Positions 25,312 to 54,577 of a stretch of DNA of 64,000 nucleotides are shown piece after piece (positions within the stretch are counted from its first letter, which is position 1; every line of letters begins with the position of its first letter). The DNA is taken from contig CM060731.1 of the NCBI GenBank assembly GCA_030704615.1, positions 49,352,001 to 49,416,000 on the forward strand. The letters run 5' to 3'. The position numbers were made by a program, and so were the translations under genes. The notes below the pieces were generated by a model that was not told the DNA's origin, searched no databases, and saw only the letters and a program-made list of their open reading frames with translations. This stretch comes from Takakia lepidozioides (Eukaryota > Plantae > Bryophyta).

Positions 25312-26370
25312 GTCACAACGATGATGTCAGCCAAGTTAGCTTCAAGGTGAAGACTCCGGTGTATCTGATACACACTAAGGAGGGAGATTCTCCAACTCTA
25401 AGCACACTAATACAGAAACCGGTTTTTTTAACGGCTCTTCTCACACATTTTGGTGTGAAAAGAGCCCAAGTTCACACCCCCCCTTTGTGTTAGGTTAACC
25501 TAGTCCTTTGCACCACATGTGAACTTTCTTGGTCCTGTGAAAAAAACCATCTCACACCAAATTTGCACCTGATGTGGCAGTAGGATTAGGTGGCTCTTTT
25601 GACGGATATTTTGACGGCCGTTTTGACTGGTTAGTTCAACCACTATTTTGACTAAGTAATCTTAATGGTCTTTCTACGGTACTTATTACACCTCATTGCC
25701 ACCATGTCTGCCACATGTATGTCAAAGGGAATGCCACGTAATAGAGTCCATCAGAATTATTAAATAAATAATAGATATTAAGGGCTCTTCTTACGGATTC
25801 TCTCACACAGATTTAACACCAGGTTGAAGTCATGGTGTGATCGCAATGACACTAGTGTGAATACTGTCATATCCATTGTTTTGTTCATATTGAACGAAAA
25901 GTAAACAATTATTATTTGTTGACAAATGCCAAAATGAATAGTCATATTATTATTATTCTTATTCTTATAATAAATGGGATAGCACCCCAAAAGCCATTGG
26001 CTGCTTGATTTAATATGTAATATATTATTATTTTAGAATTTTTATTTGTTTTGTTTCATTTAAACAAAAGCTTATTTAAAACAGGGATAATAATTGTATT
26101 ATTAACCACATTGACCAATAGTAATGTTATTAATATTAAATATAGCAAACAACCAGCAAAATACCACATTCATGTCTACACAAGAAAAATTTGGCTTGAT
26201 GTGGGAAAATGAAGTTGCCCTTGAACAAGGGGATCTTGTGATCATACATGAGAATAGCAAGAGCATCAATTCAAAAATACTGTTCATGTGAGAAGAGCTG
26301 TTTTGTTCACCTGTCTCAGCAACCCTCAATCCATAAAGAAAACTAAACTAAACTTGTAGCACCTTCAATA

Positions 26371-30310: not shown

Positions 30311-30429
30311 CTGCACACATTGCTCAACATAAACATGAGAAACAATACCACCATACTACTAGGGATGGCAAACCTAGTGGGTAAGCGAAGCCCAAAGGCC
30401 TATGCAAGAAGACCCTGTCAGTCAGACCT

Positions 30430-31750: not shown

Positions 31751-32150
31751 CAGAGAGGAAAGGGAGATTGTCAATGCTCACTGGTGTGGGTGGCCTGAAG
31801 ACAATGTCCATTTTCTGATACAAGTCCGGGGTATTCTCATCAGAGAGCGACCCTCTTCAGGACCATCAAGAACATAGTCCCTGCACCTCTGTTCACCAAC
31901 TTTCAATATCTCAAGGCTGAGTCTAAAGCGGTGGCCCTGTTGGGGTCTCATTGCTTGGTAGCCCACATACAACATATTGATGCTTGTGTGAAGGGCTTTC
32001 TAAAAGGAATCTGGAAAGCCTGAACTAATGTTTATAACACGGTAAGTCCTACTACTGGAGTGAGCCCCTCATGTCTGTTCCCTCTTGTTCTGTTGGGCAT
32101 GGGCAAGGTCTGTGGCCACAAGGCTATGATAAGCAACTTCTCAGGAGTGC

Positions 32151-32153
<3 letters not shown>

Positions 32154-32188
<35 letters not shown>
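32154..32188 (+). repeat. (CT)n microsatellite
   Basis: Direct observation. Confidence 0.95.
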
Positions 32189-32191
<3 letters not shown>

Positions 32192-32859
32192 AGTCTCGAG
32201 GACGAAGGACTTCTTTGTGGGTTGTGTTTACATGCCCACAGAGGGGACGCTTTTGTGCTGATGCAGACAAAGCCTTCGAAGATCACTACAACAAATTGCG
32301 GCTTTTACGTCTCTGTGTTATGACTGCAAATGCAGTCATGGAAGCCATTTACGACTTCCTGACTCTGCAGACGTAAAGACCTAGTCAGTTGTGACATGGC
32401 AGATATGACTCTCCAGGCTGGCTGTCACATGGCGCCAGAGCAGCTGTGGGGTAGTCATACACGCTGGCATTTACTGAATGACTGAACGGGTCCATATCAG
32501 CCGTTGTGTAATAGAGACACGTGCTCTCTACAGAACACGCCACGTGTCAGACTGCGACGCCATCCGACTGCAGAGGAGGGAATCAGACGTCAGCATGTGT
32601 CGCATCGTGATTTTGACACGTGGTTCCTCATGTCAATTGACACGCGTCGCTGTTGGGGGTTGTAGATTTACTTTATTGTTATTATAATTACTAAAATAAT
32701 AATAATAATTTGTTATTATTATTATTATTACTGACCAACATGGGACAGTGGCACATTATTAAATAACGAATTTTTGAAATTATATTCTTAGATAAAATAT
32801 TTATTCGCTCAGATACCAAAACACACCCTTACGGGGAAGGAGAGTTTGCCTTAGTGCCT

Positions 32860-35680
32860 GTGCTGAATTGCATCTGCTACTGTTACCTGTTTATGGATAC
32901 TTTTTATTGTCACTTTGGCAGTATCATATCAAAGTCACTCCAAACTATCTACCATCTACCCATGACCATCTACCCATGCAGGTTTCTTGTAGCTATCCTT
33001 CCACAGGGAATCATCGGTAATCTGGAGCTTGAAATCCGGCTTTCTTGGATGATCTGGACCCACACTCTATCCCTGCTCCTTCAGCTATCCATGCCTCTGC
33101 ATAGATCATGCATATTCCTTGCATTGCTGTTAGCAGCTGACAATGACAGCCTACATTTGTTCCAGCAAACACCCAACTCAACTTACCACACTAGTTCCTA
33201 TTCTCAATTGCATCTGTTACTCTCTGTAATCCGACAGGCATTTACCTTTTTGCCTCGGTTGTCCCACCATTGACTGGGGTTAGAAAAGTATTCATTCCAC
33301 AGCTTCCCCTCATCTCCGTTAACTGTTTTTCGATACTTTCCTGTTGTCACATTGGCAATATCATGTCAAAGTCACTCCAAACTAGATTCACTCAACCAGC
33401 TAACTTGCAGACATTGAAATTTAGGGCCGGTTCTGATAAGAGGGAAAAACAGGGTGAAATGTGTTGAAGAAGGTGCCTTTATTAGCAGTGCTTGATTTTA
33501 TCAATTGTGCCCCACACCACTTGCTCATAGACCTCTCCAAAGGGCCTCCATCCCGTGCCGCTGTTGTGCATATCCTGGGATTATCATCCTCCATGCACCC
33601 CAATTTGGCATACAAGTCGACAAGGGCATAGTTCAGAACAACATTTGTTTAATTCCAGCTTGGACGATCAACATCACAAACCCCGTCTTCACTCATTGCC
33701 TACTCTAGATAAGTGCAATTATGGGCTAGGCTGGTACCACATCTCATTCAGCCATATTATCAAAACAACCATGTATCCTTGTAGTTGCACCCTGCAACCT
33801 TGGCATACATGTCCACTACGGCAACGTTCAGAATCACATCAAATACAATACCAGCTTTGACAATATCACCGTGGACCTTTGTACCCTTTTTCAGGGCTGC
33901 CAGGCGTGCATTTGACATACATATCCACCAAGGCAGTGTTTAGAGTGACATCTAGTGGTACAATTCCAGATTTGATAATGGACCTTTGCGTCCTTTCCAG
34001 GGCTACCAGGCTCGCTTTGGACATACATGTACACCAGGGGAATGTTCAGAATGACATCAGGTACAATTCCAGCTTTGATGATGTCACCATGAACCTCTTG
34101 GCCCCTTCCCAGGGCTGCTAGGCTCGCATATGCATATTAACAAACACAAATGAACATGACCTGGTTTGGCTTCATCCTTTCCCACATCATTTGTTCTTAG
34201 GTTTCCAAAGCCTTACTCCCACACCTATGCTACACACACCTTACAATCATGGCAGTCCACAACACCACATCTCATTTAGCCATGTTGTCGAACTCTCCCT
34301 TTGCATCAGGCTTGCTGCACCCACATTTGGCATACATGTCCACTAGGGCAGTGGTCAGAATGACAACTAGTACAGTTTCAGCTTTGACGATGGCACATGG
34401 CCAAGAGATATCCCAATATCCCGCTACCAATGGGTTCAATGCATACTCTTGTCACATTGGCAGTATCATGTCAAAGTCACTCCAACTAGATTCACTCAAC
34501 CAGCTAATTGAACATGAAAATTTAGGGCCGATTCTGATAAGAGGGGAAAATAGGGTGAAATGTATTTCAGAAGGTGCCTTCATTAGCAGTGCTTGATTGT
34601 ATCAATTGTGCTGCTGCTGCTGCGGCTTCCAATTGACCATCTACCCATGCAGGTTTCTTGTATCTATCCTTCCACAGGGAATCATAGATAATCTGGAGCT
34701 TGAAATCTGGCCCTCTTCCACACTCTATCCCTGCTTCTTCAGCTATCTATGCCTCTGCACAAAATCATGCATACAACAATCATTCCAGCAAACACCCCCA
34801 ACCTTACTTATCAATGAGCAACGAGCTAACTTACATAATTCAATATGCATCTCAAGGCCGAGTCTGATGAGAGGGCAAAACAGGCTGAAATAGGTCGAAG
34901 AAGAACCCATAGAGGATTTGACCGACCATCAACCCAAAAGGACCTCTTGTGTGTGCTGCTTGTGTCTTGTAGTCAGGTAATGTCGGATTGGTCTGTGAGA
35001 ACCAACATGGTGCAGATGAGCAGGCAGAGATTGAAACACGGCCTGTTAATACCAAGCTGACTCTCCCAAGAACCTTGAAACATCAGGAAGAATACCAAAT
35101 CATGGTACTAACAGGAGCCAACAGCCCACATTTGCAGGATGGACAAACTTCTTCACATCGTACATTAAGGAAAAGCCACACCTTGCCATTGCGGTTGTCG
35201 CACCATCGTGAAGGATCTTTAAAAATCTCATGCCAACTCTGCTCCGTGCTGCAAATGAAGGGCCGAGTCTGATGAGAGGGCAAAACAGGCTGAAATAGGT
35301 CGAAGAAGAAGGTGCCCTCACCACATTGTCCTCGACCTTGTGTCATGGCCCATGGAGGATTTGACTGACCATGAACCCAAGAGGACCTCTTCAGTGTGCT
35401 GCTTGTTTCTGTAGTCAGGTAATGTCGGATTGGTCAGTGAGAACCACCACGGTGTAGCTGAGTGGGCAGAGATTGAAACACGGCCTGCTAAGACCAAACT
35501 AACTCTCCCAAGAACCTTGTAAACATCAGGAAGAATACCAAATCATGGTACTAACAGGAGCCAACAACCCACATTTGCAGGATGGACAAACTCATGCCAG
35601 CTCTGCTCCGTGCTGTAAAATCAGGGCCGAGCGGGTAGAGATTGAAACACGGCCTGCTAAGACGAAGCTGACTCTCCCAA
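32860..35680 (-). pseudogene. Captured host-gene fragments in nested CACTA: PLS-PPR pieces and OSB-type PDF-motif exons, locally duplicated
   Basis: MYAKLGCMEDD and other PPR-like pieces at 33500-34400; HPRKPDFKLQITDDSLWKDSYKKPAWVDG at ~32965-33055; SWHEIFKDPSRWCDNRNGK at ~35182-35240; ~410-bp duplication across 34855-35680. Confidence 0.7.
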
Positions 35681-35932
35681 GAACGGCGGGCTCCCAGCCG
35701 AAACCTCCTCGCACACATACCGTAGCGTTTCTAGGGTTGCTTGCTCCAAATGCGAAGGTTGATCCAATTGCGGGCCTCCCATGCATGTTTGCCCTCTCTC
35801 CCGCTCGCTCGCTCTAAGTCCCAACCCTCTCTCTCTCTCCCTCCCGCTCGCTCTAAGTCTGTTCACGCTACCGTGATGGGCAACTTTGTAAGTTTTTTAA
35901 CATTTTTGTAAACCCTAAAAGCCCCTCTTTGA

Positions 35933-36141
35933 TTTTTTTTCTTTTTTTTCTTTTCTTAAAGGAAACCACAGGCCCTTGAGGAGGGGGGAAAATTCACCCG
36001 CCTTCATTTATGGGCCATAAGACGTACATGACGATCAACGCCCAGACATACCGTCACGAACAATCCCACACACGGGATAAGGCAGCGGGTTTGAACCCCA
36101 AACCACCAGGGCGACACACTGTGCACTTACCAGCCGATGTG
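35933..36141 (-). mobile_element. Putative tRNA-derived SINE
   Basis: Degenerate A-box (GGCTGGTAAG) and B-box GGTTCAAACCC (36097-36087) on the minus strand; ~200 bp; A-rich tail at 35933-35957. Confidence 0.55.
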
Positions 36142-39100
36142 TTTTTTTTTTTTTTTTAATTACATTTTGTTTTTTTAATAAAATTGATTCTAGTGGTCAG
36201 AGTCTCCGTTTTTTCAAAATATAAATACTCATATATTATATATATAACCAGAAAAGCATGTGTCGACATGTGCAGTCATGTAGTGATTCATCCATGTGAT
36301 GATATGGCAGAATGCATTAGAGTGAGAGTCATGAAGTCATATGTCTTTCTAGCAATATACACACGTCATTCTAGTGTAGCCATGACCGTGACTGGTAGTC
36401 ATATCTGCCATGCCAATATTCGTGGTCAAACATGTTTGACCTGTGTTGCGCAGAGTCCGGAGCCATGCAGTCGCATATACGCCTTCCCCAGACCTGCATT
36501 ATGACTTCAAAAGCATTTTACGACTGCAAATGGCATTTCTGCCACAAATCTGTCATGACTGCGTACCCATGGGAGTCGTAAAAGCCGCAATCTGTTGTAG
36601 TGGATGTAAAGCTGGACCGTGCTTCGTTCCTTGCCAAAGGTCAGGTGGTGCTATTGGGTGACTTCAATGCCCGGGTGAGCAAAGGGCTCCATCAGGACGA
36701 TATCATTGGACCTTTTGGTGAGGACGAACTGAATTCTAATGGCAGACGGTTAATTAACTGTCTAGAAGATCTTCAGCTTTTGACCTTGAATAACAGGACA
36801 AGAGGTGACCAAGTGCAGTGGACTCGTGAGAAATCCCAAACTGGGGAACGTTCCATTGTGGATTATATCATAATGGAGAAAAATTTGTTCCCCCAGTGTG
36901 CCAATGTGTTGATCGACAGAACTGATATTGGTACCTCTGACCAGTTCCTGGTTTGGAATGAGATCAAAAGGTGTTTTCCCAACACCAAGAGATATGTGAA
37001 ACATTTTATTCGGAAGTGGCGCATAGAAAAACTCCATAATGAGGAGGTCAAGGCTGAGTATGTCCAGGCCTTGCAAGAGGCTCTCCCTCATTTTGTCCAA
37101 TCGCTCCAAGAACTTCAGTCTCGCTCTGATAACGCAAGAAATGAAGTCGAAAGAGCAGGGGACTCTTGGGAGAGTTTCGTTTCCTCCGTGGTTGACAAGA
37201 TCATTGGGATGAAACTAATTGTCTGTGGTAGAGCTGTTAATTGGTGGACCAATGAGATTAAACTCAAGATAGCTGAGAGACGAGCCCTCTATAAAGAGTG
37301 CTACAATTTGGAAACCAACAGAGAATTGTGGGCGAGGTACTACCAGCTCCGTAAAGATATCAAACAGTTTGTTAGGTCTCACAAGAAATTATACTGGGAC
37401 AAGTTATACAGTGAAATAAACTCAAACCACCATGGTGGTAATGACAAGAAATTCTGGTTGGCCCTTCAACATTTGTACAAGCCCGAAAAATGGTCAGCAA
37501 GTACAAGCGCTGAAGACTACTAAAGGTGCAGTGGTGACTTCATCAGTTGACATTGTCAAAACCTTTGAAACTCACTACAGTATCCTTGGCATAACTTCTA
37601 GGTCTAACAGTGAGGGGTCTTCTACTGAATGGAGGGACACAGTTGGAAAAACTGTTCCTATGATGCAAAACAGCCCTGATGAACTGGAGTATATTTCAAT
37701 GGCTTATAACGCTCCCATTAGTCCTTCTGAGATTGTGGAAGCAATTGAACATTTAAATGGATATAAAGCTGGTGGACCTGATGGTATTGTCAACGAGCTT
37801 ATCAAGCACGGTGGCGATCCCATGCGGGTTGCCAACATAAATCAGGCATTGGCAGAGACGGTTCAATCCATCAACTTCAAGAAAAAATTCAATCCCTAGT
37901 TCTCCTCTTTAACCTGATCTAGAAGACTGAAACGATCCCCTTTCGCTGGTGACAGGGCGTCATTGTCAATCTATACAAGAAGGATTTATAGAGGATATCT
38001 AGAAAACCCGAATTAATTCTATATATGACTTCAGGTAAGTCTTACTACCAACATCAGCCCCTGACAGAGGTAGGTTCTGTCCCTTTTGTTCCCGCTCAAA
38101 CTGGGCGCGGGGTCAATGTCCACAAGGCTACGGCAAACAACGTCTTATGAGTACAATCTCTCTCTCTCTGATGAAAATGAAGTTAGACAAAGTGGCTTGT
38201 CACTACCGTTCATGTTGTTGTTCTTCTTGGTCCATGGATTGGTGAGAGACAATCACCAAGTCAAAACCACTATTCTCAGTTTATGGGTTCAAGATGAAAA
38301 AAGAAAAAGAGGCAACATTTATATACCATCATGAAGGAGAGTCAAGCATACCATAAGAGTACCGACACTCACATTGTTGAAAACAAAGGCACATGGTCCA
38401 CAAGTTGAATTGGCAAAGAGATGTTGGAGGGTTTAGGGGTAAGGACTTCAAGTGCCTCTAGTGCTGCACTGTCTATGTGACTTTGTTGAAGAAGAAGTAT
38501 GACCCCCACAACTGTTGGCCTCATTACAATCCAGAAAGCAGGCAACTGGAGTTGACATTCCAGTGAGCCTTTTCCCACCCAAATTCATATGCAAGACTCA
38601 TGCCCAACAACCTTGCTGCAATTGTTTCTTACCCTCACTGCCTTTTCATATGCACATGGAGACAGAACTTTGGTGCAGATCGCAAACCTGCTGATGGGTT
38701 GGGGAGTTTGCAGGGTGCTTTGCGCGCTTTGTCTTTGTTGGGGCTTCTTTCATCGTTTCCATCTCTGACTCCGAGCTGGTCTCATTCAAGTCTTCATGTG
38801 CGGCATAATCTTGGTCTCACTGCAATTCTTGCTCTCGTGCCTCCTCTGTGTTTGACTCCGCTTGAACCTGCGCTTCCTCCTCTTGCTCTACCTCTTTCTC
38901 CCGTTGTGACATTGCAGAGTGCAGGAGTTGAACTCTGTGACTTCGGCGAGGAGGACCTGTGTGTTTGAGGATTTCCTCAACAAGACGTTTAGGGCGACTC
39001 AAGCTCTCTTCGACGCTGCAAAGAAGAAGAAAGACAAAGTCAGCAGCTGCAAAACCCTAACATATCCTCTCTGCAGGTTTGGAGCTTTTAATGCGGTTTC

Positions 39101-39310
39101 ATGGCTAGGGCTAGGTAGGGGATACGAAAAAAACGGAAGTTCGGACCTCTTTGCAATGTCGTAGATCTTCAGTCGTGCGAAGAATGCCTTGTTCTCCGCT
39201 TGACGCTTTGCTCGTTCTACCTCCCTCGCTGTAGGCTTGCGCCCTGGTTGTAACTTCTGGACACTCTATTTGGGTCTCCATTTCCTGACGAGTCTCACTC
39301 ACTCGCCAAG

Positions 39311-42300
39311 ATGATCCCTCCTACTGCCCATCGATTGCAAAGGCGGACACAAGCAAAACATAACGATGACAGATTGTGGAAACTAGAGGAAGCGCGAGCA
39401 AGAAGACTGGGTCTTCGGAAAATTCTATGTCCATGCAATGCCTGTCATGGTGGGAACTGGCAAACCATTGGCCGGGCTAAGTGTCATCTGCTTTTGAACT
39501 TGCGAGATCCTAACTTACGAGAACTCCCGGTGCATATCTCTGGATTCTCTTCCCTTTGCAGATGCATACTTTGAAATTATAAGAAACAGTTCAAATTCCT
39601 GGAAGCGGTATTGTTGTAAGGTGTAGAGTATTGTACATGCCCGTTTTCCTATTGCCACGTGCCTGTATAATGGCACGTTCCACATCCACTATTGCAAATG
39701 AAAAAACTCCCCATCTTAGAGTGGATTGACATGTGGCGTCTGATATGTACTAACCAGGAAAACTCTGGAGACGAACATGAGGGGTTTAGAACGGAAACCA
39801 GCCCTGCAGGTGGTCCTGATACCTTGGATCGTAATCTTGACATGCTTAGAATGCTCCGGGAGACATTCGCAACTATAGATAATGGGGTGCAAACTGGTGA
39901 TGCACATGAGGAACCGGGAGATGGAACACAGGGCCAATGGGACACAGATGGAGTGCCAGAGCAGACTGATGGTGGACTGAAGAGCGATGGTGATCGTGGT
40001 GCAGCGAGTGCCTTACGTTTTGAGCACGAGGCATCCAGGGCTTTATATGTAGGGAGTTCTTCCTCTCGATTGTCTGCTACCTTACTGCTGTTAAATGCTT
40101 GTCAAACCCATGGTGTGTCAAACACCTTTGTCGATGAACTCCTTACATTGTTAGGAAGACAACTCTTGCCAGCAGACAATTGCCTGCCAAAGTCCCACTA
40201 TGAGGCAAAACAACTCATCATGGAACTCGGGCTTCATTACGAGAGTATACATGCATGTCCGAAAGGCTGTGTGTTGTTCATAAGGGAGCTTCAAAATTTG
40301 GAGGTTTGTCCAAAATGTCAGGCACGTCGTTATGTGGTGGGTACGAAGACACCAGTACCTCGTAAGGTCCTTCGACATTTCCCCATCATTCCAAGGCTGC
40401 TTCAATGTATAAAGCCAAATCCATCTCAGAGTTAATGTCATGGCACTTTAAGAATCGAAGTCTGGATGGCTTGGTTAGGCACCCAGCAGACAGCAAGGCT
40501 TGGGCCCACATTGACCAAAAATGGCCTGAGTTTGCAGCGGACCCCAGAAATCTGCAATTGGGTCTCGCATGGGATGGTGTCAATCCTTACAGTGATAAAT
40601 CAAACAAATGGTCAACTTGGCCTGTCATGTTGGTAAACTATAATCTTCCACCCTGGCTGTGTACTAAGCCATTTTCACGATGTTGGCTTTATTGATTCCT
40701 GGACCACAATCTGTGGGAAATGACAATGCAGATGTTTATCTGCAGCCCCTTGTGGATGAGCTGAAATTGTTGTGGGAAGTTGGTGTGGAGGCATTGGATG
40801 GAAGTAGCCTAGTGGGGCAACAGTCATTTCGCATGAGGGCCATCTTGATGTGGTCAATCCATGACTTTCCAGCTTATGGGTTGCTAGCAAGATGCGCACA
40901 CGGGGGATACAAGGCCTGCCCAGCTTGCGGCCCTAATGTTGATTCCAGGTACTCCAAGGCATGCAAAAAAGTTTTGTATCTTGGTCATAGGAGATACTTT
41001 CCTGCTGTTCATCCCTATAGGAATAACTCGTCCCACTTTAATGGACATGTGGAACATAGAGCAGCTCCTATGGTGGTCACTGCAAGTGAGCAATTTGACC
41101 GGGCTAAAACCAGAGAGTTGAATCTCGCAATAGGAGGGGCTGAGGGGGGAAAACAGGACCCTTCAAAGGAACATGGCATGAAACGGGTCACTGTTTTGAA
41201 CCAATTGCCATACTGGAAAGACTTACTCATCCGATACACACTGGATGTGATGCATTGTGAAAATTTTTTGTGTGAGAATGTGCTGAGAACCATTCTTGGG
41301 GAGAAGGACACAGCCACATCTAGGAAGGATATGGAACTCAATGTCATTCGTGAACACTTGTGGTTGAGACCCCATCCCTCTCACCCAAACAAGTTGGTGA
41401 AGCCTTTGGCCCCATATGTTCTTACTGAAGATGAGAAGGTGTTGTTTTTGGAAACATTGGCTGCAGTAAAGGCCCCCACAGGTTATGTGGCCACATTCCA
41501 GAAACATGTGGCTGACAATAAACTGTCTACAATGAAAACCCATGACCACCATGTAATGATGCAGCAGATTTTACCTCTTTGCATTCGAGGGGTATTGGGA
41601 AAGGGTCCACGGATGGCAATTATGAGGCTTTCTCGAGTCTTCCGAAAAGTGTGTGCAAAGATTATTAATCCAACTGAGCTACCGGCCTTAAAAGAAGATG
41701 TTGCAATCACTATGTGTCTGCTGGAGAAAGAATTCCCTCCGTCATTTTTTGATATCATGACTCACTGCTTGTACACCTTGTGGACGAATTGGATGTGTGT
41801 GGTCCCGTGTCTAGCCGTTGGATGTATCCTATGGAACGGTATATGAAGACATTAAAAGGCTATGTAAGGAATATGAGCCGACCTGAAGGGAGCATGGCGG
41901 AAGGGTATGCTTTGGATGAGGCCCTAGGGTTTCTAACTGAGTATATGGCTGATTTTCATGCTACAAGCCGAAGGGTGTGGGACTCCAATGAAGAAGACTC
42001 AGTTAGTGGGGAGGTGGTTCAAGGATTGGGAAGTGTACGAGTCCTCACCATTCAAGAACGAGACAGTGCACACGAGTATATTTTGCACAACACAGATTGC
42101 ATGAAACCATTCCTTGAGTAAGTATGTTGCTTATCATATCCTGTGTGTTTCATTTCTGCCAATGGTATAAGCTGTAATCCTAATTTGCAATTCTCATTTG
42201 GACAGGGCCTATGAAGAGGAGATGGCACTCATAGAAGCATCCCGCACTGAGTTCAGAACAACATTCCTTTGTGGACAAGACCAAGACCACCACAATGGAG

Positions 42301-43118
42301 AAATTCCATACCCAACAGATATGCGCTTACTGGCTCCATTCCATGAATGGATTGAAGGTGTTGTCCAACGCAAGGTGAGTTCAGGTGAGTCCTATGATTT
42401 GGACATATGCCATTTATGTATACCACCAGCAGTACAGTCCTTGGGCTTCAAGTCCATGTATGCTTACGGCAATCACTTTCGAGCAATATGTGATGGGACT
42501 GGCGCCACAGACAGGGTGACATTTGATTCTGGAGTTGCTCAAGTATTCCATCAGGAAAGCGAAAACAGAGCAGGTATGTCCAAACGAGTGTTATCCCAAT
42601 TGGAATATGTGGGTGTTGTAACAGAAATAATTCAACTGGATTACGGAATTCTTCACCCAATTCTGTTCTTGTGTAGATGGGTGAGGTCACACATGGTGGG
42701 CCGGAATGCCACCATGAAACGAGATGATTATGGCTTTCTCTTGGTTGACTTCAGTCGCATGTTACCTCGGATGGAGCAGCCCTGGACATTCCCTAGTCAG
42801 GTGGAGCAAGTTTTTTTCTCGGATGAAAAAAGTTCACGAGGGAACTGGAAGGTGGTCCTTCATAAGGACCCTCGATCCCGACGAGTGGTTCACGATATTA
42901 CAGAAGTGGCACTGGGTGAGGGAGACATTTATGTAGGCATGGTGCCTCCTGAAATTCCTCATAACATCATGACTGAGCTTGCTGTTTGTGTTCCTTTGAG
43001 TGAGGCAGATGAATTGGCCATTGCCAACTTGAATGCACTTGCAAGGCAGAGGCAAAATGGTAGAAGGCGGAGGCAAGCTCCACATGGGAGGTACCAGGCC
43101 ACTTATGCTATGGTCTAG
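39311..43118 (+). pseudogene. CACTA TnpD transposase (Tnp2/Transposase_21, DUF4218/DUF4216-like), frameshifted
   Basis: CPCNAC first exon; IHACPKGCVLF, LRHFPIIPRL, HPADSKAW, DGVNPY, STWPV, DVYLQPLVDEL, HDFPAYG, LDVMHCE, FPPSFFDIMTH, RWMYPMERYMKTLKGYVRN..RPEGSMAEGY. Confidence 0.95.
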
Positions 43119-43279
43119 AGTTGGTTTCTGCTATTGCATGTATTTTTCCAGGGTTTAGACTTGATACAACATGGTACCTTGCATGGGTGGGAGTGACTGA
43201 GCTGTTGGGGTGGGCAAAATTCTGACAAACACACTTTCATTTGTGACAGTGAATCCTAAATAGTCATGGAGTTGTGGCC

Positions 43280-44635
43280 TGCATACTTTTCTGACCCTAG
43301 TCAATGGTGGCCCAATTGTGGCAAAAAGGTGAATGCATGTTGGATTATAGAGAGTAGCAGATGCAATTGAGCATAGGAACTAGTGTGAGAAGTTGAGTTG
43401 GGTGTTTCCTAGAACAAATGTAGGCTGTTATTGTCAGTTGCTACCAGCAAGGCAAAGATGTATGCATGATTTGTGAGAGGCATGGATAGCTGAAGGAGCA
43501 GGGATAGAGTGTGGGTCCAGATTCATCCAAGAGGGCCACATTTCAAGCACAACATTGCCTATGATTCCTTGTGGAAGGATAGCTACAAGAAACCTGCATG
43601 GGTAGATGGTCAACTGGAAGCCGCAGCAGCAGCGGCACAATTGGTAAAATCAGGCGATGAGGGCACCTTCTTCAACACATTTCACCCTGTTTTCCCCCCT
43701 TATCAGAATCAGCCCTAAATTCCATGTTGAATTATGCAAGTTAGCTGGTTGAGTGAATCTTTGATAGATTGAAGTGACTTTGACATGATACTGCCAATGT
43801 GACAACAGGAAAGTATCCAAAAATAGGTACAAGAGATGAGGAGAAGGTGTGGAATGAATACTTTTCTGATCCAGTCAATGGTGGGACAACCGAGGCAAAA
43901 AGGTGAATGCCTGGCAGATTACCAGATGTCATTTTGAACACTGCCCTGGTGGAAATATATGCCAAATGTGGGTGCATCGAGGATGCCAAGGGAGTGTTCA
44001 ACACTATGGCTAAACGAGATGTGGTGTCGTGGAGTGCGATGCTTGCAGGGGCATGGGATGGAGGCTTTGGAGACCTATGAGCAAATGATGGGGGAAGGGT
44101 GAAGCCTGACCACATAACATTTGTGTGTGTTGGCAGTGAGTGTGGGAGCCTGGCAGCCCTGGAAAAGGGCAAAGAGATCCATCGTGACAATTTGCAATTG
44201 TACCAGATGTCATCTTGAACATGACTGCTCTGGTGGACACATGTATGCCAAATGTGGGAGCATTGAGGATGCGAAAGGAGTGTTCAACACTATGGCTGAA
44301 CAAGATTGTGCGTTTGCAATGCGTGTGCAAGTCTGGCAGCCCTGCAAAAGGGCAAAGTGGTGCATGGTTGCATCACCAAAGCTGGAATTGTAACAGATGC
44401 GATTCTGAACAATGCCCTCGTGGACATGTATGCCAAATATATGTTAGAGCATTGAGGATGCGGAGGGAGTGTTCAACACTATGGCTGAACAAGATGTGGT
44501 GTCGTGGAGCGCGATGCTTGCAGGATGTGCACAGCAGTGAAGTGGGATGGAGCCTTTGGAGACCTATCATGACCAAATGATGGGGGAAGGGATGAAGCCC
44601 GACCACAACACATTTGTGTGCGTTTGCAGTGCGTG
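43280..44635 (+). pseudogene. Captured OSB-type PDF-motif exon region followed by degenerate PLS-PPR fragments
   Basis: IHPRGPHFKHNIAYDSLWKDSYKKPAWVDGQL at ~43521-43616; YAKCGCIEDAKGVFNTMAKRDVVSWSAM at ~43958-44041; reverse-complement similarity to 32860-34800. Confidence 0.75.
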
Positions 44636-46500
44636 TGCAAGCCTGGCAGCTCTGGAAAAGGGAAGAGGTCCATGGTTTCATTGTCAAAGCCGGAATTGTA
44701 TTTGACGTGATTCTGAACAATGCCCTCGTGAACATGTATGCCAAATGTGGGAGCATCAAGGGCAAGCCTGCCAGCTCTGGAAAAGGGAAGATCGGGTCCA
44801 TGGTTTCATTGTCAAAGCTTGTATTGTACCTGATTGTGATTATGGACAATGCCCTCGCGGACATGTATGCCAAATGTGTTAGCATGAAGGGCAAGCCTGG
44901 CAGCTTTGGAAAAGGTTCCGATCACGTCCATGGTTTCATTGTCTAAGCTGGAATTGTACCTAATGTGATTTTGAACAATGCCCTCGTGGATATGTATGCC
45001 AAATGTGGGAGCATCAAGGGCAAGCCTGCCAGCTCTGGAAAAGGGAAGATCAGGTCCATGGTGTCATTGTCAAAGCTGGAATCGTACCTGATTGTGATTG
45101 TGGACAATGCCCTCGTGGACAAGTATGCCAAATGTGGGAGCATCAAGGGCAAGCCTGGCAGCTCTGGAAAAGGGAAGAGGTCCATGGTTTCATTGTCAAA
45201 GCTGGAATTATACCTGATGTGATTCGAGACAATGCCCTCGTGGACATGTATGCCAAATGTTTCAGCATGAAGGGCAAGCCTGGCAGCTCTGGAAAAGGGA
45301 AGATCGGGTCCATGGTTTCATTGTCAAAGCTGGAATTGTACCTGATGTGATTTTGGACAATGCCCTCGTGGACATGTATGCCAAATGTGTTAGCATGAAG
45401 GGCAAGCCTGGCAGCTCTGGAAAAGGGAAGATTAGGTCCATGCTTTAGGGATACCAAATGTGGGAGCATCAAGGGCAAGCCTGCCAGCTCTGGATAAGGG
45501 AAGATCAGGTCCGTGGTTTCATTGTCTAAGCTGGAATTGTATCTGATTGTGATTCTGGACAATGCCCTTGTGGACATGTATGCCAAATGTGGGAGCATGA
45601 AGGGCAAGCCTGCCAGCTTTGGGAAAGGGAAGATTAGGTCTATGGTTTCATTGTCAAAGCTTGCATTGTACCTGATTGTGATTCTGGACAATGCCCTCGT
45701 GGACATGTATGCCAAACGTGGGAGCATCAATAGCAAGCCTGCCAGCTCTGGAAAAGGTTCTGATCAGGTCCATGGTTTCATTGTCAAAGCTGGAATTGTA
45801 CCTGATTGTGATTCTGGACAATGCCCTTGTGGACAAGTATGCCAAATGTGGGAGCATCAAGGGCAAGCCTGGCAGCTCTGGAAAAAGGAAGAGGTCCATG
45901 GTTTCATTGTCAAAGCTGGAATTATACCTGATGTGATTCTGGACAATGCCCTCGTGGACATGTATGCCAAATGTGTCAGCATGAAGGGCAAGCCTGGCAG
46001 CTCTGGAAAAGGGAAGAGGTCCATGGTTTCATTGTCAAAGCTGGAATTGTACCTGATGTGATTATGAACAATGCCCTCGTGGACATGTACGCCAAATGTG
46101 GGAGCATCAAGGGCAAGCCTGCCAACTCTGGAAAATTGAAGATCAGGTCTATGGTTTCATTGTCAAAGCTTGCATTGTACCTGATTGTGATTCTGGACAA
46201 TGCCCTCGTGGACATGTATGCCAAACATGGGAGCATCAATGGCAAGCCTGCCACCTCTGGAAAAGGTTCCGATCAGGTCCATGGTTTCATTGTCAAAGCT
46301 GGAATTGTACCTGATTGTGATTCTGGACAATGCCCTCGTGGACATGTATGCCAAATGTGGGAGCATCAAGGGCAAGCCTGGCAGCTCTGGAAAAGGGAAG
46401 AGGTCCATGGTTTCATTGTCAAAGCTGGAATTGTACCTGATTGTGATTCTGGACAGTGCCCTCGTGGACATGTATGCCAAATGTGGGAGCATCAAGGATG
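44635..46500 (+). repeat. Tandem array of ~15 units of 125-130 bp derived from PPR coding sequence
   Basis: GACATGTATGCCAAATGTG-like anchor at ~44731, 44860, 44989, 45118, 45243, 45371, (45451), 45573, 45702, 45832, 45957, 46082, 46211, 46341, 46467. Confidence 0.95.
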
Positions 46501-47896
46501 CGAAGGCAGTTTTCCAACACTATGGCTCTTGGAGTGATTTTGACATGTACCAGTAGAGGGGAGAAAGTGGGGCCCTCAGCAGACGAGTTGAAAATCACTA
46601 GTTAAAAAACACTGGCGCTTGATAGGGTGGGGCAAAATTCAGGCTGGGGCGATCATTGATATCCCGGACGCAGTGTAAAAACGACGGTTGCGAGTGAAGT
46701 ACACCCGTAAAAAATAAACCCTGCTGTCTCAAAAAGGGAGCCAGTCACAAAGAGCAAGGCACTTTGTCCAAGCTTCTCGACATCAAGCAACAATGTGGAC
46801 AGGGAGGTAGTCATTGGGAACAATTTTTGTAAGGTGGTGAAGAAAGCCTTGTTTGAGGATCACTGGATATTTCTCTAGTACGGTTGGACTACTAGAGATT
46901 GAAATTCGTGCTCAGCTCAGCTTCAGACTGTCTCATTGTGAGGGGCCTAGGGTTGTTGTGAACATGCGCCTACGCCCTCTCTGCTGCGTGTCCCGAACTG
47001 CGTGTCAAGGTTGACTGGACAGAAATGGGATTGACATTTATGGCACTCACAAATCTCTGAGACGACATGTGGTAGTTTTATCTATAACTTCTCAAAGCAA
47101 GTACATTGTTGATTATAGTGTGACATTCTCATAACGATATTGTCGTCAGCTGCATGAGCAGTGCATCTTTTTGGATTGCTGGTTCCCGAAGGAATTATAT
47201 GTGACAGGATAGAGGGAAAGTTATAGCCAATAGTTGCAGGCAGTGTTCAATATTGAAGAGAATTCTACGCCCTTTCGGTTCTGCCGATCTCCTTCTCATT
47301 TTACTTGAGGTTGTCTATTTTGAGAGCTTTGATGTTTGGATGAAAATGCATTTTGGCATCAACTTAAATGGATGGCCTGCACTGGTGGGCATTCAGATTC
47401 TAAACGAGCTGGCAAAGAAAAACTACAAGTCCCACAGCCCTCTACATGCAGACCCCATAACCCTAATAACCTTTTTGAACTTTTAAATTCTCTAAACAAA
47501 AGTCTATGTGTTATGTCGTCCAAGGCATGTTGAATAGAGGTGGAAGTCATTTCATCCATCTATCTTCCACCTGCCCCAAATTCCTGTAGGACATCTCACA
47601 CTAACCTCACACTCCATGACTCATTTCACACTCATGTCAAATGCCCCATATGCATTATCTTGGTCAACACCCGTTGACCGTATGGGTATCATTCGAGTGT
47701 GAAGTTTGTAACACCATGTGGGTTTTCCTACAATGGTCCAGATCACACCTTGCCTCCTCTCACATGGGTGTAAGAGGAGCTGTTCAAAGTGCCAGGTGTG
47801 AACTATGGGTGGTGTTGGAAAAACTGGTTTCTGTAGTAGTGGCAAGTCCAAGATTTTACCGCTCCTCGAGGAACTCGGCGCTAGAGGAGGGGGTGA

Positions 47897-48678
47897 TGTC
47901 ACGGATATAGCCCAGAGGAACTTACCAGGAGTAAATACCAGAAGTTATCAAGTTATCATGTTACCAAAAGTTACCGTAATCTACCATGATCTATCATGAT
48001 TTATCATAAGTTACCATAAGTTACCAAGTTACCGGAAGTTTACCAAAATTACCGAGAGTAACTTGCGAAACTGCTCAGGAAGCTTCATTTGGAGGAAACT
48101 TTTCCATCAAGATACCTCCTTTGTTTAAAGAAACTTCTCCATCAAGAAACCTCATTTGGGGAAGCCTCTTAGGGAACCTCCTAGTAGCTAGTATATATAG
48201 GAGGCGAGACTAGACACTCTTCAGTCTCGCCAACACAAGTTCAAGCTACTCAGTCCCAGTCCCAGTACTCCAGTCCAGCTTCCAGTACCTTAGTCCAGTT
48301 TCCAGTATCTGGTACCCCAGTCCAGTTTCCAACATTCATGTATTCGAGTCGAGTTCCAGTATCTTATACTCTTGTCTATTGTTATAAAGATCATCTTTAT
48401 TCATGTTTACCCACCATACATTCGGCCACGCCGACCTTGACTTCTTGTCTAGTCTTGTACCTCTAGTCTGATCTATTGTCTATCTGGGCTACTGATCCCT
48501 TGGCTCTTGATTGAGAAGGCAGGACGTGCCAACCGTTGCAAAGATAGTAATCGCATCTAGGGCTTCCACCATTACCAACAGCCTTTTTAGAGCATTCTTC
48601 ACAATGACATTGTGAAGGTGAGATAGACCAAATCTTCGAATCTTGAGTTTGTGTTCAGTTATGTTCTCGTCCGTGACA
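47897..48678 (+). repeat. 3' LTR of chromovirus
   Basis: TGTCACGG...CCGTGACA; preceded by PPT; matches 19182-19963. Confidence 0.92.
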
Positions 48679-50189
48679 GTGGATAGGTTTGCCTAGCTAG
48701 AACAATGTCTTGTTACCATGGCCACTACTCATGTTGCGCCAGCTCTAAGGCCTGAGGTTTAAGCCCCACCTACACAACCTCCTATGCCTAGGGAAGACCA
48801 GATTGGTATGGGCTTCATGTGTGGAGCCGCACTTGCATGACCATTGCATGTGGACTCTGCAGCTACTGTCACTCGAACAACAATGCGTGCTCCTGAGCCA
48901 AGAGGAGCGGATGTGGATTTTGATCCACAAAGAGGGGAAGCAAGTCGGCAGACAAGACTTCCACAGTCTTTTACATTGGCTGAGACAGTGCCAACTATGT
49001 CATCGATGGCACCCGCTCGCCCAAGTGTGTCAGAGGTAGAGCCACGAATGCCATTGGGGAGAGTTGGTGTGGCTCGGGAAATGCCAGTGGGTGGTGCTGC
49101 AAAGCAAGGTGTAGTCAGTATATTGTTGGGGGCGGCTACGGCAATTTGCCAAGCTCTACTGTTTTCTGCCACGACAATTGTAATGTCGGGGATGCGGCTA
49201 GCTGCAGTGTTTAGACTGGCAGCTGCACTCTATGAGAGTGGTGATGCATCGATACTATCTGCGGGGATAGTGGATAAGGTACAGTGCATGGATGCCCTGG
49301 ATTCAAGAGTGAAGACAGCCACAGCTGCGCCATGGCAAACGGCATCTGCAAGGTTGCAGGAGTTGCCATCTAGACCAGCCATTGAACATAGTGTGGTGAC
49401 TCCTGGGGTAGTCCTGGTGGACAATCAGGATGGTGTGTTTCAGTTGGGTGGCCCAGCCGGGAGGAGGTATAGGTCACTGCAGGTCTTGTTGGACTCGGGA
49501 GCACAGCCATTGATGTTGGGGAGAGCAGCAATTGCAGGCGTGGGCCTTACAGAGGCGAATTTGGAGCCTTGCCCTGTCCAAATTCAAACATCTTTGGGCG
49601 GTTCAGAGAAGGCGCGAGGGATTACACGCCATGAGCTCTTCATTCGATTGCAGCCGGATCATCCTACGGACGGCTCGGTCATGAGAGCTAAAGCCATTGT
49701 TACGGACGCGATGTCCTATGATGTGGTTGTTGGTGGGGCTGTGTTGTACCCCATGTGATTTACTTTGGACTTTTGGGAGGAAACGACATCCTACAGGCCG
49801 GAATGGCAGTCAGGAGATGGCCGACGTACACTGCTCATAGTGCGGTTTATTGGGAATGTAGCGGTGGATCATGGGAACATGATGCCCACATTGGCTGCAT
49901 TCTCAGGGGTGGTGAGCTCTTGGAGGGCAATAGCCATGCAGATGATAGGCCATCACCTGATGATGACAAACAATTGGCATACAAGGCTGAATTGCTTCCT
50001 TATGTGCCTGTGCATATTCCACTATGGGGTACGGTTGGGAATTTGCATCGAGTAGCAGACGAGTGTGTGCACCAAGCATGGCAGGAGGCCTTTCCATTGG
50101 TGAGTGAGAGAAGTTCAGTGACATCACCTGGACCTCCTGAGTTAGCTCATTTGGACACAGTGCCCATTACCTGGCAACCATCTGACTCA

Positions 50190-51115
50190 GGGATTTGTTT
50201 GCTAGATCTGTTTGGAGGCATGAGCACTGGGCTTGCAGGAGTGTTGCAAGCAGGGATTAAGGTATGCAAGTACTTATATATGGAGAAGGATGAGATAGCT
50301 CGGCGTATTTCTATGCGCCACATCGCCTTGCTCACACACCGGTATCCTGAGTTGTTGTCTCTCTTGGCAATTCAAGGGTATCAAAAGGCCTTGCCAGCAG
50401 ACATTACCTTGCTGGGGGTGGATGATTTGGACCGGCATGGTGCCATTGACTTGGTGATAGCTGGATGGCCTTGCCAATGACACTCTCCCGCAGGTCATGG
50501 GAATGGCTTGCATGATGCACGATCGCATTTGTTTTGGGAAATGTTGCGAGTGTTGCGGGACTTGCAGACGAGGCAAGTGCAACCTCTAGGCTATATCTTG
50601 GAGATTGTTCCTCTGATGGAGGATTCTCGGGCCAGGGTAATGACCAGTGTGCATCAGGTGCGGTCTTGGATTGGATCGGCGGTGCTATTGGATGCAGCAA
50701 TGGTGGGATCACGTGTGCATCGACCTCGATTGTGGTGGACTAATCTTGCACCACCAGAGCTGCTCAAGAGAGCATATGATTCCATTCAACGGCCACCCAA
50801 TCTCACGGTTGAGGGATTTTGGACCAAGGGAGGCAACCATAGAGGGTGCGACATGATGACCGTCCACCTCTAGCAGTGGTCAATCGAGTGGGGCAGCCAC
50901 GTGTGGCCTTGCCTACACTCATGAGCTTCCCCTCGTCTCATGTTTTCCGAGACAATGGTCCTGGGTTGATTTGGGACATCGTGCTACAACAATTGGTGGA
51001 GCCCAATGCGGATGAGCGAGAGCGGGCAATGGGTTTTACCACGGGCACTACAGATATGCCAGCTCTGTCAGAGGTATCACGTCGCCAAATGTTGGGTCAA
51101 GCAATGGATCTAAAT
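50190..51115 (+). pseudogene. DNMT3-like C5 cytosine methyltransferase domain inside pol
   Basis: Motif I LDLFGG, II YME, III DI, IV AGWPCQ, RSHLF, VI YILEIV (ENV decayed), VII LDAA, VIII HRPRLWWTN, TRD PTL, IX ERERAMGF, X RRQMLGQAM. Confidence 0.9.
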
Positions 51116-54020
51116 TGGTTGATAATTGGCTTGTGCATGGCTGAGCAACGGAGATTGCAAGCATTGATGGCTACTTCTACACTCCCATTGGATGGTGCAT
51201 CCTCCCTGCCAACCGGGACGGTTGAGGCAGTGAGTGGGGGCGAGCACATGATCGTGGGTTGCAAATACCCATGGCAGATGTGTAATAAGATGCGCAAAAA
51301 AAGAGTATGAGGAGTGGGGAGAGCCATGGACTGATGATCAGTTGGAGGCCAAGGTAGCCAAGGTTTTTGAAGAGGTTGAGAATATTTCTTGCTCAGAGGA
51401 TGTTCTCAAGGTGGCTATGGCGGAACAAATGGAGGCTACGCCACAGTCAGATTGGGCGGACAAGGCCCAAGAGGTTGCTATCTAGCAACCAAATGATTCG
51501 TCTCCTACCTCAAAGCCTAGTGTACCCAAGGTTGCAGTCACTGAGGACAATTGGGAACCAGATGTTAGACCTACAGTCACCAGAGGAGAGAGACAGAGAA
51601 TCCATCGATTTCTAAGGGCTTATAGAAATTGCTTTGCCTTCGGTTTGAAGGATTTGCGGAGTTTGAAGGGCCAGGAGATTCGTATTGATTTGGCAAGTGA
51701 CACGCCAATTTTTCGAAGGCCCTACCGGTATAGTGACATGGAGAGGTCATTGATCCAGTCACGGACTATGGAGCTGTTCGAAGCTGGATTGGTGGAGTTG
51801 TCAGGTGGGGAGTATGCCTTGGCAACGGTAATGCTAGCTAAGAAGAATATCTATGGCAATTGGACAGAAAGAAGGATGTGTGGGGACTATCGTTCTGTGA
51901 ATCGTCATACTAAGTCCGATAGATATGCCATGCCAACTCTAGAGGAGATCTTTGTTGCCATTGGGCATGCAAAGGTGTTTAGCATATTGGACTTGTGATC
52001 CGGTTACCACCAGTTGCCAATCAAAGAGGCTGACAAGCAAAAGATGGCATTCTGGGGGATTAACCAACATGGGAAGGATTGCTTGTACCAATGGCGGTTC
52101 CTACCGTTTGGGTTGAAGAATGCTCCTGTAGAGTTTCAGAGGGTTATGGATAGGATTCTCGCGGGGCTAGACTTTTCCCGGTGTTACATTGATGTCATCA
52201 TCGTCTTTAGTGCTACGGTTGAGGAGCATGAGAGACACCTTCAGGTGGTGTTTGAGCGCTTGAGAGCGCATGGGTTGAAATTGCACCCTGGGAAGTGCAA
52301 GTTCTTCCACAACCAGATTGAGTATCTGGGCCACATGATATACCATGGAGGATTGGGTATTCAAAAGACGAAGGTGGAGGCCATTGCACGCATTCCATGC
52401 CCCATAGATGTTAGCAGAGATTCATGCTTTCATGGGGTTGGCAAACTACTATCGACGGTTTGTCAAGGGATTTAGCAGCATTGCAAAGGCTCTTACCAAG
52501 TTGACCAAGGTGGGTCAAGAGTGGCAGTGGGAGGCAGAGCAGGAGGAAGCCTTTGAGGAACTCAAGGCTCAATTGACTTCTGCACCTATTATGAGGTGGC
52601 CTTTCCAGCTACATACGGATTGGAGTATGCTGGGAATTGGAGTAGTGTTCACACAAGTGGATAACAAGGGAAGAGAGTTCGTAGTGGCATATGCCAGCCG
52701 TGATTGGTCATGTAGATGGTGTGCATGACGATCCGGAGATCAGTGAGGAGCTTGGTGGTGCTAATGATGTGTATGAAGATGTAGCAGTGTTGGCCTACCT
52801 TCGTACAGAAGAGACAACAACCAGTGTGACTGCTAAGGAGAGAGATCGGATCCTACAACGAGCCAAGAGGTTCAAGTGGGAGGGGACTCACCTACTCCGA
52901 GTATGGGAGGATGGACGAGTGAGGATTGTGCCTCATCCAACACAACGAGCGCGATTGGTACGCCATGCCCATGAAGAGCTGGGACATTTTGGGGTGCGGG
53001 GCATGCACACGGATGTGCAACACTTAGTGACAAGGTGTATGGTGTGTGATAGAGTGCGGGCTTCTTTCAATGCACCTATTCCACAAATTGCATCCTTTAT
53101 TCATTATGGGTTTGGGCTATCGTTGGAGTCTTGACTTCGCAGGCCCATTGCCACTAACGATTCGCCATAACAAGTATGTGCTGGTGATGGTGGAACATTT
53201 CTCTAAGTGGATTGAACTGGTGGCATTGCCTGACAAGGCAAGTGAGGGTGTATGCATTCTTAGATCGAGTGCTTAGCCAATTTGGTGCTCCAGCCGAGGT
53301 ACTCACGGACCAGGGGAGAGAGTTCTTGGGGGAGTTTCAGGCTTTGTATGAGCAAACCTTGATAGATCACTGCACTACTTCTCGGGATCATCCCGAGGCT
53401 GATGGCCTGGCAGAGAAGGTTGTACAAATAGTTAAGCGAGGCTTGCGCAAATATGGCTTGCAGAAGGGACACTCAGGAGATTGAGACCTGCAGCTACCTT
53501 GGTTGGCCATGGGCTACAGGTTTAGCAAACAAGCATCACTTGCCTCGTTCTCGCCTTATTTCCTTCTCTTTGGCTGAGAGCCAGATTTGTCTGCATCTAT
53601 TCGTAGAGAGACTGCAGTAGTCCTCAACCTTGATGATCCGGATGTGGGGACATAAGCATGTGCCCAGCGGACAGAGTTGTTCAAGAAAAAGTCATGCCTA
53701 TGGCTTTTGATAACCTTGCTATTGCCCAACACCGAGACACATTGAGGTACGCCACTATACGTGGAGGGGGATATCGGCCAGGTGTTCGGCGTTTCCACCC
53801 TGGGGACTATATGTATCTGCAACAGACAGCGCCTACGACTTTGAATGTCACAGCAGGACGTGTGATTCTAAGGGTCTAGGAGGTGTTGCGTTCAGGAGTG
53901 TTGATTCTGGAGGGTCGAGATGACATGGTATGGAAGGACCATGTGCGCAATTGTACGCCATGTCACCTTCCACATGTGGATGGGAGGATAGATCACAACT
54001 TTGCAGTGGTACCTGCAGGG

Positions 54021-54143
54021 TTGCGTTGCATGCTGGTGGTGCCGCAACCATGTTGGTGTGTGACAAATGCTCAAAGGGGTGGCACATGGGATGCTTGACA
54101 CCGCCATTGAGGAGGAGAATGGTTGTGTCCACGATGCCTTTGA
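54021..54143 (+). pseudogene. PHD finger at integrase C-terminus (two small deletions)
   Basis: LRCML..MLVCDKCSKGWHMGCLTPPL..GEWLCPRC fits the C4HC3 pattern. Confidence 0.85.
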
Positions 54144-54577
54144 CATAGGTAGTGGACATGACAATGGTGTAGTTGACAAGTGATCCAAGGTAGCTCAACG
54201 CCATGGATACTCAATTGAAGATCATGGATTGCAAGTAGGCGACTAACGATGGGGCTCTCGTTGCACCTGGCCTCTTGGTCCATATACTTTAGAAAATTGG
54301 GAGATGTGCGATTGAAAACCAAACGATGATCTTATTGAGATGGATACTTGTCAGTTATCCGGTGTTAGAGGGACCTAATCACCAGCTAGGGGGGCGATTG
54401 TGGCATAGCTAGAATTGTGTGCTTAAAATGTATGGTGGACAACGATGTATGTTGTGGCACGATGCTTAGGTGCACGACATGTGTTATTAAATATATATTT
54501 TGTCGAACGGCAGACCGTCGGTCTGCTGGAGGTCTGCTGAAGGTCTGCTCTGCTGGAGGTCTGGAGAGTTGCCCAGT

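Follow-up and report, generated by a model that had tools for sequence, protein, structure and literature searches.

Finding a cytosine methyltransferase inside a retrotransposon raises the question whether a single copy has captured a host gene or whether a whole element family carries the enzyme, and in the latter case how the enzyme might be made and what it might act on. We examined this for a stretch of 64,000 nucleotides from the moss Takakia lepidozioides (GenBank assembly GCA_030704615.1, contig CM060731.1, positions 49,352,001 to 49,416,000 of the forward strand), which is called the window below. The window contains a decayed copy of an old Gypsy family of mosses and liverworts. The DNA methyltransferase (DNMT) in its polyprotein is a trait of this family and no one-off capture, because homologues occur in several genera, the domain order recurs and the enzyme is under purifying selection.

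The methyltransferase and its element family

In the plus-strand frames of 48600-54500 the domains follow the order protease (PR), C5 methyltransferase, reverse transcriptase (RT), partial RNase H (RH), integrase (IN) and PHD finger, and with its Gag the element has the Ty3/Gypsy order of Gag, protease, RT, RNase H and integrase. An earlier interpretation made without database searches (the sequence-only reading) had placed the C5 motifs between protease and RT on the plus strand, and we located all of them at 50157..51148, in linear, non-DRM order. Motif I (LDLFGG) lies at 50202, motif IV (PCQ) at 50469-50477 is directly followed by a TGA at 50478, motif VI reads EIV at 50601 and is followed by motif VIII (HRPRLWW), and past a frame change at about 50815 come motif IX (ERERAMG) and, near 51098, motif X (GQAMD). 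With the stop read as X, 50145-50831 matched PF00145 with 40.4 bits (E 3e-10, cut-off 22). The coding region of this copy is disrupted by stops and frame changes. The sequence-only reading had called it dead on the basis of the TGA, EIV instead of ENV and YIDV instead of YIDD in RT, which was confirmed, and the PHD finger and RNase H are damaged as well.

The type of enzyme was assessed with the stop-free DNMT domain of a relative (L012, 3231-4229). Its best match was human DNMT3A (E 1e-11), next came DNMT3B/C, and DRM and bacterial enzymes ranked far below. DNMT3A was also first among the structure matches of its predicted model, with DNMT3A/B as the closest solved structures; confidence in the model is low (pLDDT 58), it was used for the fold class alone, and its target-recognition region was poorly predicted (pLDDT < 50 at residues 202-272). 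The element methyltransferase is classed here as DNMT3-like by best-match ranking.

A protein search with the DNMT gave 26 homologues among 3315 candidates, with 43-68% identity: 16 from Marchantia polymorpha, 2 from Calypogeia fissa, 2 from Sphagnum and 6 others. Closterium holds a homologue with the DNMT before RT, and close kinship was also seen for an RT-IN-PHD protein of Coleochaete scutata, whereas no Klebsormidium sequence was among the matches of the homologue searches. Two queries against viral contigs gave no match. Additionally, 80 of 112 metagenome loci were kept, most of them from one cluster (the main cluster) and some representing one insertion in different samples; the whole order Gag-PR-DNMT-RT-RH-IN-PHD was present in 15 of the 40 loci of at least 6 kb. 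In the host DNA run the summed contig depth, which is not a copy number, was 95,000-125,000 over the DNMT and 81-97 in the flank. This roughly 1000-fold difference shows that the element belongs to a large repeat family in the host genome.

Several Marchantia homologues carry Gag, CCHC, protease and DNMT in a single open reading frame (ORF) with PCQG and ENV intact. The catalytic cysteine is retained in 76 of 77 loci, and motifs I, IV, VI, VIII and X are conserved across lineages. Between the window, L012 and the main cluster the proportion of synonymous differences (pS) in the DNMT is 0.68-0.73, which is near saturation, and that of nonsynonymous differences (pN) 0.22-0.26; the RT pN between the same lineages is 0.16-0.21. 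The ratio of nonsynonymous to synonymous rates (dN/dS), a check already proposed in the sequence-only reading, had a median of 0.17 over 201 non-independent pairs, indicating purifying selection on the family DNMT. Many Marchantia gene models that carry an annotation as DNMT or PHD proteins of the host are pieces of the element (P0003, P0007, P0031, P0041, P0050 and others; examples are Mp4g09160, Mp8g17980 and Mp1g18210).

The Atlas contained generic PF00145 clusters only, one of them eukaryotic and mostly from Streptophyta, and a profile built from eight DNMT domains retrieved 431 clusters (50% identity) at E<=1e-30. Among 158 proteins, the DNMT followed RT or RNase H in 70; in 20 it followed Gag or protease or preceded RT, and the remainder showed DNMT and integrase only (18) or DNMT only (50). 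The second architecture, RT-RH-DNMT-IN-PHD, is represented by P0118, P0095, P0105, P0119 and 66 further proteins; in P0118, from Chlamydomonas eustigma, the DNMT lies between RNase H and integrase with visible motifs and a PF00145 score of 14.3 bits, which is below the cut-off. Trees were built from 118 DNMT (midpoint root) and 71 RT sequences, with near-duplicate Marchantia rows omitted and with neither host DNMT nor Klebsormidium sequences included. In the DNMT tree the window grouped with Marchantia, Calypogeia, Sphagnum and L012 (support 0.998), and all types with the DNMT before RT formed one clade (0.99). Similarly, the RT tree contained a bryophyte group including the window (0.941) and a group of the after-RNase-H type (0.958). 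One old DNMT capture, one domain move and descent through streptophytes would fit these data.

KnitGypsy-Dnmt3, an element of Klebsormidium nitens (de Mendoza et al. 2018, PMC5890265), likewise has the domains of a Gypsy element, a Dnmt3-like domain without introns or rearrangement in its polyprotein, A-coding-B-A-B repeats (here seen in relatives) described as a DIRS-like layout, purifying selection on the DNMT and a streptophyte host. It was described as an acquisition of the K. nitens lineage, whereas our results indicate a family of much broader distribution. As far as the KnitGypsy text goes, the bryophyte family differs in its land-plant hosts, in a TAG-CAA-CC motif with the DNMT on its Gag side and in a PHD finger on the integrase; the words PHD, protease and readthrough do not occur in that text, although Fig. 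4c may show such domains. The self-priming site, 4-bp target-site duplication (TSD) and internal CA-NN-TG junction of the bryophyte family are also not in that text. SymbioDIRS-Dnmt3 and SymbioLINE-Dnmt of Symbiodinium are further retrotransposons with a C5 methyltransferase, and the former is Dnmt3-like, has split repeats and was reported to methylate CG in yeast (PMC5890265). However, DIRS elements have a tyrosine recombinase and long interspersed nuclear elements (LINEs) lack long terminal repeats (LTRs), whereas the bryophyte element has a protease and a DDE integrase; the tyrosine recombinase family gave no match in the element ORFs scanned. Retrotransposon DNMT3s are mentioned for streptophytes in the available text of Sarre et al. 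2025 (PMC12344493), where land plants are not named. The sequence-only reading did not know DNMT-bearing retrotransposons as a characterised feature of land plants, and our literature search, which left most subscription papers, theses and Repbase outside, found reports for algae only; PHD fingers in Gypsy polyproteins had already been described in Chlamydomonas (PMC9940879).

The conserved stop and the PHD finger

Between DNMT and RT the window carries an in-frame TAG CAA CCA (51483..51491, plus strand), a predicted readthrough signal. When stops were scanned with L059 as ruler (1651 columns), 46 of 50 loci shared a stop at a single column between DNMT and RT; the runner-up reached 16 of 45 and consists of glutamine codons decaying to stops. 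Of 51 linkers, 40 carry the motif TA[GA] CAA CC in frame and 2 carry it in another frame; the other 9 lack it, several of them holding decayed variants. TAG CAA CCA is common to the window and L012, and the conserved stop is also present in L058 and the main cluster. L012 carries the conserved stop and a second, private one, and the possibility that it is one open frame was rejected on these grounds. Four ORFs, three from Marchantia and one from Calypogeia, terminate 124-126 amino acids past motif IX, which is the stop position of the main cluster, and the DNMT (P0021) and RT-IN-PHD (P0034) form two distinct ORFs whose contigs have equal lengths.

In the relatives the DNMT is in frame with RT but upstream of the conserved stop. 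The sequence-only reading had assigned the methyltransferase to Pol; since it lies before this stop, it would instead be made together with Gag. TAG-CAA-CC is likely a leaky stop with Gag-PR-DNMT on one side and RT-IN-PHD on the other. CAR YYA after UAG is the readthrough signal of tobacco mosaic virus (TMV), for which 32% readthrough is given in one plant reporter, and rice gypsy elements are named among the readthrough candidates (PMC2754532). The likeness to this type consists of UAG, CAA and a pyrimidine codon in frame between two retroelement ORFs; SIRE1, MuLV and Tca2 are covered in PMC2194720. However, the stop described here follows Gag-PR-DNMT, not Gag or Pol, and the main cluster has CAA CCC.

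The PHD finger (54018..54145, plus strand) was found where the sequence-only reading had seen it, at the position that a chromodomain occupies in chromoviruses. The region 54002-54145 matched PF00628 with 30.8 bits (cut-off 24), although in the window its second cysteine is lost and two deletions shift the frame. Among 94 homologues of the integrase C-terminal region (519 candidates), 73 had PF00628 and none had PF00385, so the element has no chromodomain at this end and a PHD finger there instead. The consensus in relatives is CxxC...MLVCDxCxxGWHxxCLxPP...GxWxCPxC, and the best 60 of 82 PDB matches comprised CHD4, PHF12, DPF, PHF21A, KDM5, ATXR5, BAZ2, UHRF1, AIRE and similar proteins. PHD fingers of these proteins are mostly readers of unmethylated H3K4 tails, and the cage tryptophan typical of H3K4me3 readers is missing from the element PHD. 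We lean slightly towards the view that the finger resembles readers of unmodified H3 tails, which predicts that integration is kept away from active promoters. DNMT and PHD would fall on different cleavage products, which does not support the single writer-plus-reader module of the sequence-only reading.

A PHD finger in a Gypsy polyprotein, with suggested steering of insertion, has been described for Gypsy-7a_cRei of Chlamydomonas, and REM1 was cited as another PHD-bearing Chlamydomonas Gypsy element (PMC9940879). However, no DNMT is listed for Gypsy-7a_cRei, its LTR pair is ordinary and the legend puts its PHD before the integrase. Tcn1 chromoviruses share the reader domain at the integrase C-terminus, self-priming and non-seed plant hosts (Neumann et al. 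2019, PMC6317226, the available text of which contains neither 'PHD' nor 'Marchantia'), but the DNMT element differs from them in its PHD instead of a chromodomain, its DNMT and its permuted LTRs.

Terminal repeats and extent of the window copy

The structure of the ends was taken from relatives. A long form A(339)-coding-B(113)-A-B was present in L038, L059/L074, L060 and L079, with B-A-B also in L010 and L067, and a short form A-coding-B in L018, L027, L028, L037, L041, L046 and L069. The elements start with TGTCATG-like and finish with CACGACA-like sequences (TG...CA), and among the 10 loci in which both ends are present, 7 are flanked by a perfect 4-bp TSD and the other 3 by one that matches at 3 of 4 bases. 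A polypurine tract (PPT) stands before the first B. A tRNA site is lacking downstream of the first A; in its place is an 11-mer with a complement inside A, 31 bases past TATAAA. Of 23 copies examined, 11 had a TATA match, and 7 of these showed pairing at 9-11 of the 11 bases. Because the PPT and the priming site define it, the true LTR is B+A. Instead of two complete LTRs around the coding region the elements have a permuted LTR. Its layout is that of KnitGypsy-Dnmt3 and sets the element apart from a chromovirus variant whose LTRs are ordinary. The observed form is a circular permutation of BA-coding-BA, from which we infer integration from a two-LTR circle. A search of the split-repeat literature by title found no Gypsy case.

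In the window we identified a PPT (54383..54398) resembling that of relatives and one terminal repeat B (54399..54479; TGTGG...CACGACA), which forms the 3' end and is followed by neither A nor a second B, and the copy looks like the short form A-coding-B. The 13 bases after this end (54480-54492) are identical to L067 8172-8184 (12 of 13 in L027) and the sequences diverge beyond; this may be chance or a target preference. The family contig depth drops after the bin holding repeat B and climbs at about 17.0-17.4 kb. The 5' end with repeat A was not found in the window (54100-56000 against 14000-18200 gave no match). TGTG candidates for it at 16619, 17176 and 17636 were rejected for lack of the expected start and TGTCGTG at 16258 for lack of a TSD.

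The sequence-only reading had given the element a span of 48679..54143, which proved too short, as 48679 is where the LTR of a nested chromovirus ends and the gag lies far upstream. The gag, with two CCHC zinc knuckles, makes up the 5' half at 18124..19176 (stops at 18382, 18730 and 19144): Marchantia Gag aligned with 18124-18726 by tblastn, the zinc knuckles are at 18865-19041, and PF03732 scored 26.2 bits (cut-off 24.1). The chromovirus splits the element at 19182..48678 with LTRs at 19182-19963 and 47897-48678 (89-96% identity), between the left TSD GTGAA (19177..19181) and the right copy GTGGA (48679-48683; 4 of 5 bases). Its gag-pol-chromodomain part is at about 20025-24500 (Chromo PF00385, 57.2 bits), about 23 kb of other repeats interrupt it in turn, and 8 of 11 bases of its self-priming site are paired, the kind described for Tcn1 chromoviruses of non-seed plants in the text of PMC6317226. 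From the right TSD the Gag-protease linker extends to 49401 (48679..49401) and continues the reading frame of the 5' half; the frame is identical on both sides of the chromovirus, and the linker residues match Marchantia proteins. Recombination between the LTRs of the intruder may have joined two different copies, but because TSD and reading frame agree across the chromovirus we take the halves as one copy.

The remaining domains, all on the plus strand, are the aspartic protease (49402..49824, LLDSGA, stop at 49756; 14.7 bits, which is under the cut-off, but aligning with relatives that score above it), RT (51552..52358; RVT_1 103 bits, stop at 51996), an N-terminal remnant of RNase H (52600..52701, the rest deleted after about 52700) and the integrase with zinc finger, DDE core and C-terminal region spread over several frames (52961..54017). 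An intronless PLS-class pentatricopeptide repeat (PPR) gene of 1062 codons with an E motif adjoins the element at 56755-59943. Together with the Tcn1-like chromovirus, this gene points to a non-seed land plant as host. Decayed, partly inverted PPR-like arrays of about 129-bp tandem units, resembling this intact gene, lie inside the chromovirus interval (43741-46540 and 32900-34800). The ORF pieces at 39671-43118 resemble a CACTA-type DNA transposon, and the fragments at 15059-16174 and 36582-37523 resemble RT and endonuclease of LINEs. Direct repeats at 1-631 and 5098-5742 are 91% identical and 5.1 kb apart, the second overlapping a glycosyltransferase-like minus-strand ORF (5003-5554).

Proposed function, alternatives and significance

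Our preferred reading, which we regard as fairly probable, is that of an ancient streptophyte Gypsy family (Gag-PR-DNMT3-like / stop / RT-RH-IN-PHD) whose DNMT would be made at Gag level, packaged, released by the protease and used on the element's own cDNA, with integration from a circle. Very likely, ribosomes would mostly halt after the DNMT and only occasional readthrough would yield RT-IN-PHD. The DNMT, in Gag-level amounts, would be packaged and then freed by the protease. Ordinary reverse transcription would give BA-coding-BA, the ends of which would be joined into a circle, and cutting this circle at the B/A junction (CA, 2 bases, TG) upstream of the coding part would give exactly A-coding-B-A-B; we consider this circle step, taken as a whole, moderately probable. 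The DNMT may mark the cDNA or circle and let it enter the genome already methylated, as camouflage or self-restraint, a point on which we are evenly divided. Finally, we are mildly inclined to think that the PHD would steer the integrase off H3K4me3 promoters.

Several observations weigh against this reading. KnitGypsy-Dnmt3 gave no methylation in yeast, which its authors considered inconclusive (PMC5890265). Synonymous-site CpG depletion gives no pointer to self-methylation, because the values in L012 (7/371 vs 134/604) and the window element (10/174 vs 71/315) are matched by the host PPR gene (7/140 vs 99/300); the nested chromovirus shows no such depletion (22/112 vs 55/352). CAA CCC of the main cluster falls short of the full CAR YYA, and in three more distant proteins (P0062, P0135 and P0239) a single ORF covers DNMT and RT with no stop between them, indicating that readthrough is not universal. 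The metagenome loci were picked with DNMT patterns, so that members lacking a DNMT could not appear. The end structure comes from relatives that are nearly all one cluster of related copies, and the window shows just the PPT and repeat B and no self-priming pair was found in it. The mirror form A-B-A-coding-B, expected from a two-LTR circle, was seen in none of the 27 loci that carry a 5' A, some of which have short flanks. Moreover, as L027 (short) and L066/L067 (long) share flanks that are 94-99% alike, short forms can arise after insertion, by recombination between B repeats, or by assembly collapse.

Alternatively, the permuted repeats would be templated from RNA as in the split-direct-repeat elements of the DIRS/PAT type, with a transcript that reaches the last B, no free end-joining and a linear or transiently circular product for the integrase. 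In 5 of 6 independent loci A and B meet flush, the joint of the sixth (L067) being decayed, whereas end-joining is usually less precise; the missing mirror form also speaks for templating, as does the DIRS-like layout noted by de Mendoza et al. (PMC5890265). However, we consider it rather doubtful, since the canonical PPT before the first B and the self-priming site after the first A are those of LTR-type reverse transcription, which would leave the last B uncopied, and since no tyrosine recombinase was seen and the TG...CA ends and 4-bp TSD are as for a DDE integrase.

It is unlikely that the DNMT enters the nucleus and has host chromatin as its main substrate in place of the cDNA, be it around the insertion site or across the whole genome. 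Gag-level expression would exceed the need of one cDNA, the catalytic motifs are conserved, and effects on the host methylome were raised in the text of PMC5890265. On the other hand, the DNMT has no fused targeting domain and the PHD lies across the stop, the K. nitens methylome is ordinary and plant-like despite its KnitGypsy-Dnmt3 elements (PMC5890265), and the second architecture, in which the DNMT is flanked by RNase H and integrase at Pol level, fits a role on cDNA. Even less credible is a non-catalytic or RNA-directed role, such as binding of DNA or RNA in the particle or acting as a decoy for host DNMT3 partners: the yeast result for KnitGypsy-Dnmt3 and the poorly predicted target-recognition region would agree with it, but the conserved motifs, the DNMT3A/B fold and the CG methylation by the related SymbioDIRS-Dnmt3 enzymes in yeast (PMC5890265) argue against it. 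That a host DNMT3 gene, or a retrocopy, was inserted just once, into the window copy, can be dismissed, as the DNMT has no introns and no TSD of its own, holds the same position in many loci and genera, is 60-70% identical to other elements and about 22% to DNMT3A, stands under the roughly 1000-fold contig depth given above and has a tree congruent with that of RT.

Beyond our preferred reading we put forward, tentatively and with less than even confidence, a green-lineage superfamily spanning chlorophytes, charophytes and bryophytes, with one Dnmt3 capture and two polyprotein positions. In land plants its members would combine loading at Gag stoichiometry, a self-primed and pre-methylated circle, a DDE cut at CA-NN-TG and targeting by the PHD through the H3 tail. 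If this holds, it would be an LTR retroelement with a circle as its normal integration substrate.

The range in land plants is by itself a moderate result; it gains a testable mechanism from the likely leaky stop, from the second architecture and from an LTR that is permuted and self-priming. The permuted LTR predicts circle-based integration by an integrase of the retroviral type. The leaky stop predicts that the DNMT would be present far above RT or integrase in each particle, which would be a strong clue to a role on the cDNA. At least 16 Marchantia DNMT-like models and many small PHD models are pieces of the element and can inflate counts of host DNMT and PHD genes. With Marchantia and Sphagnum as hosts, which provides a genetic model with methylation mutants, the role of retrotransposon DNMTs, a standing question since 2018, becomes testable.

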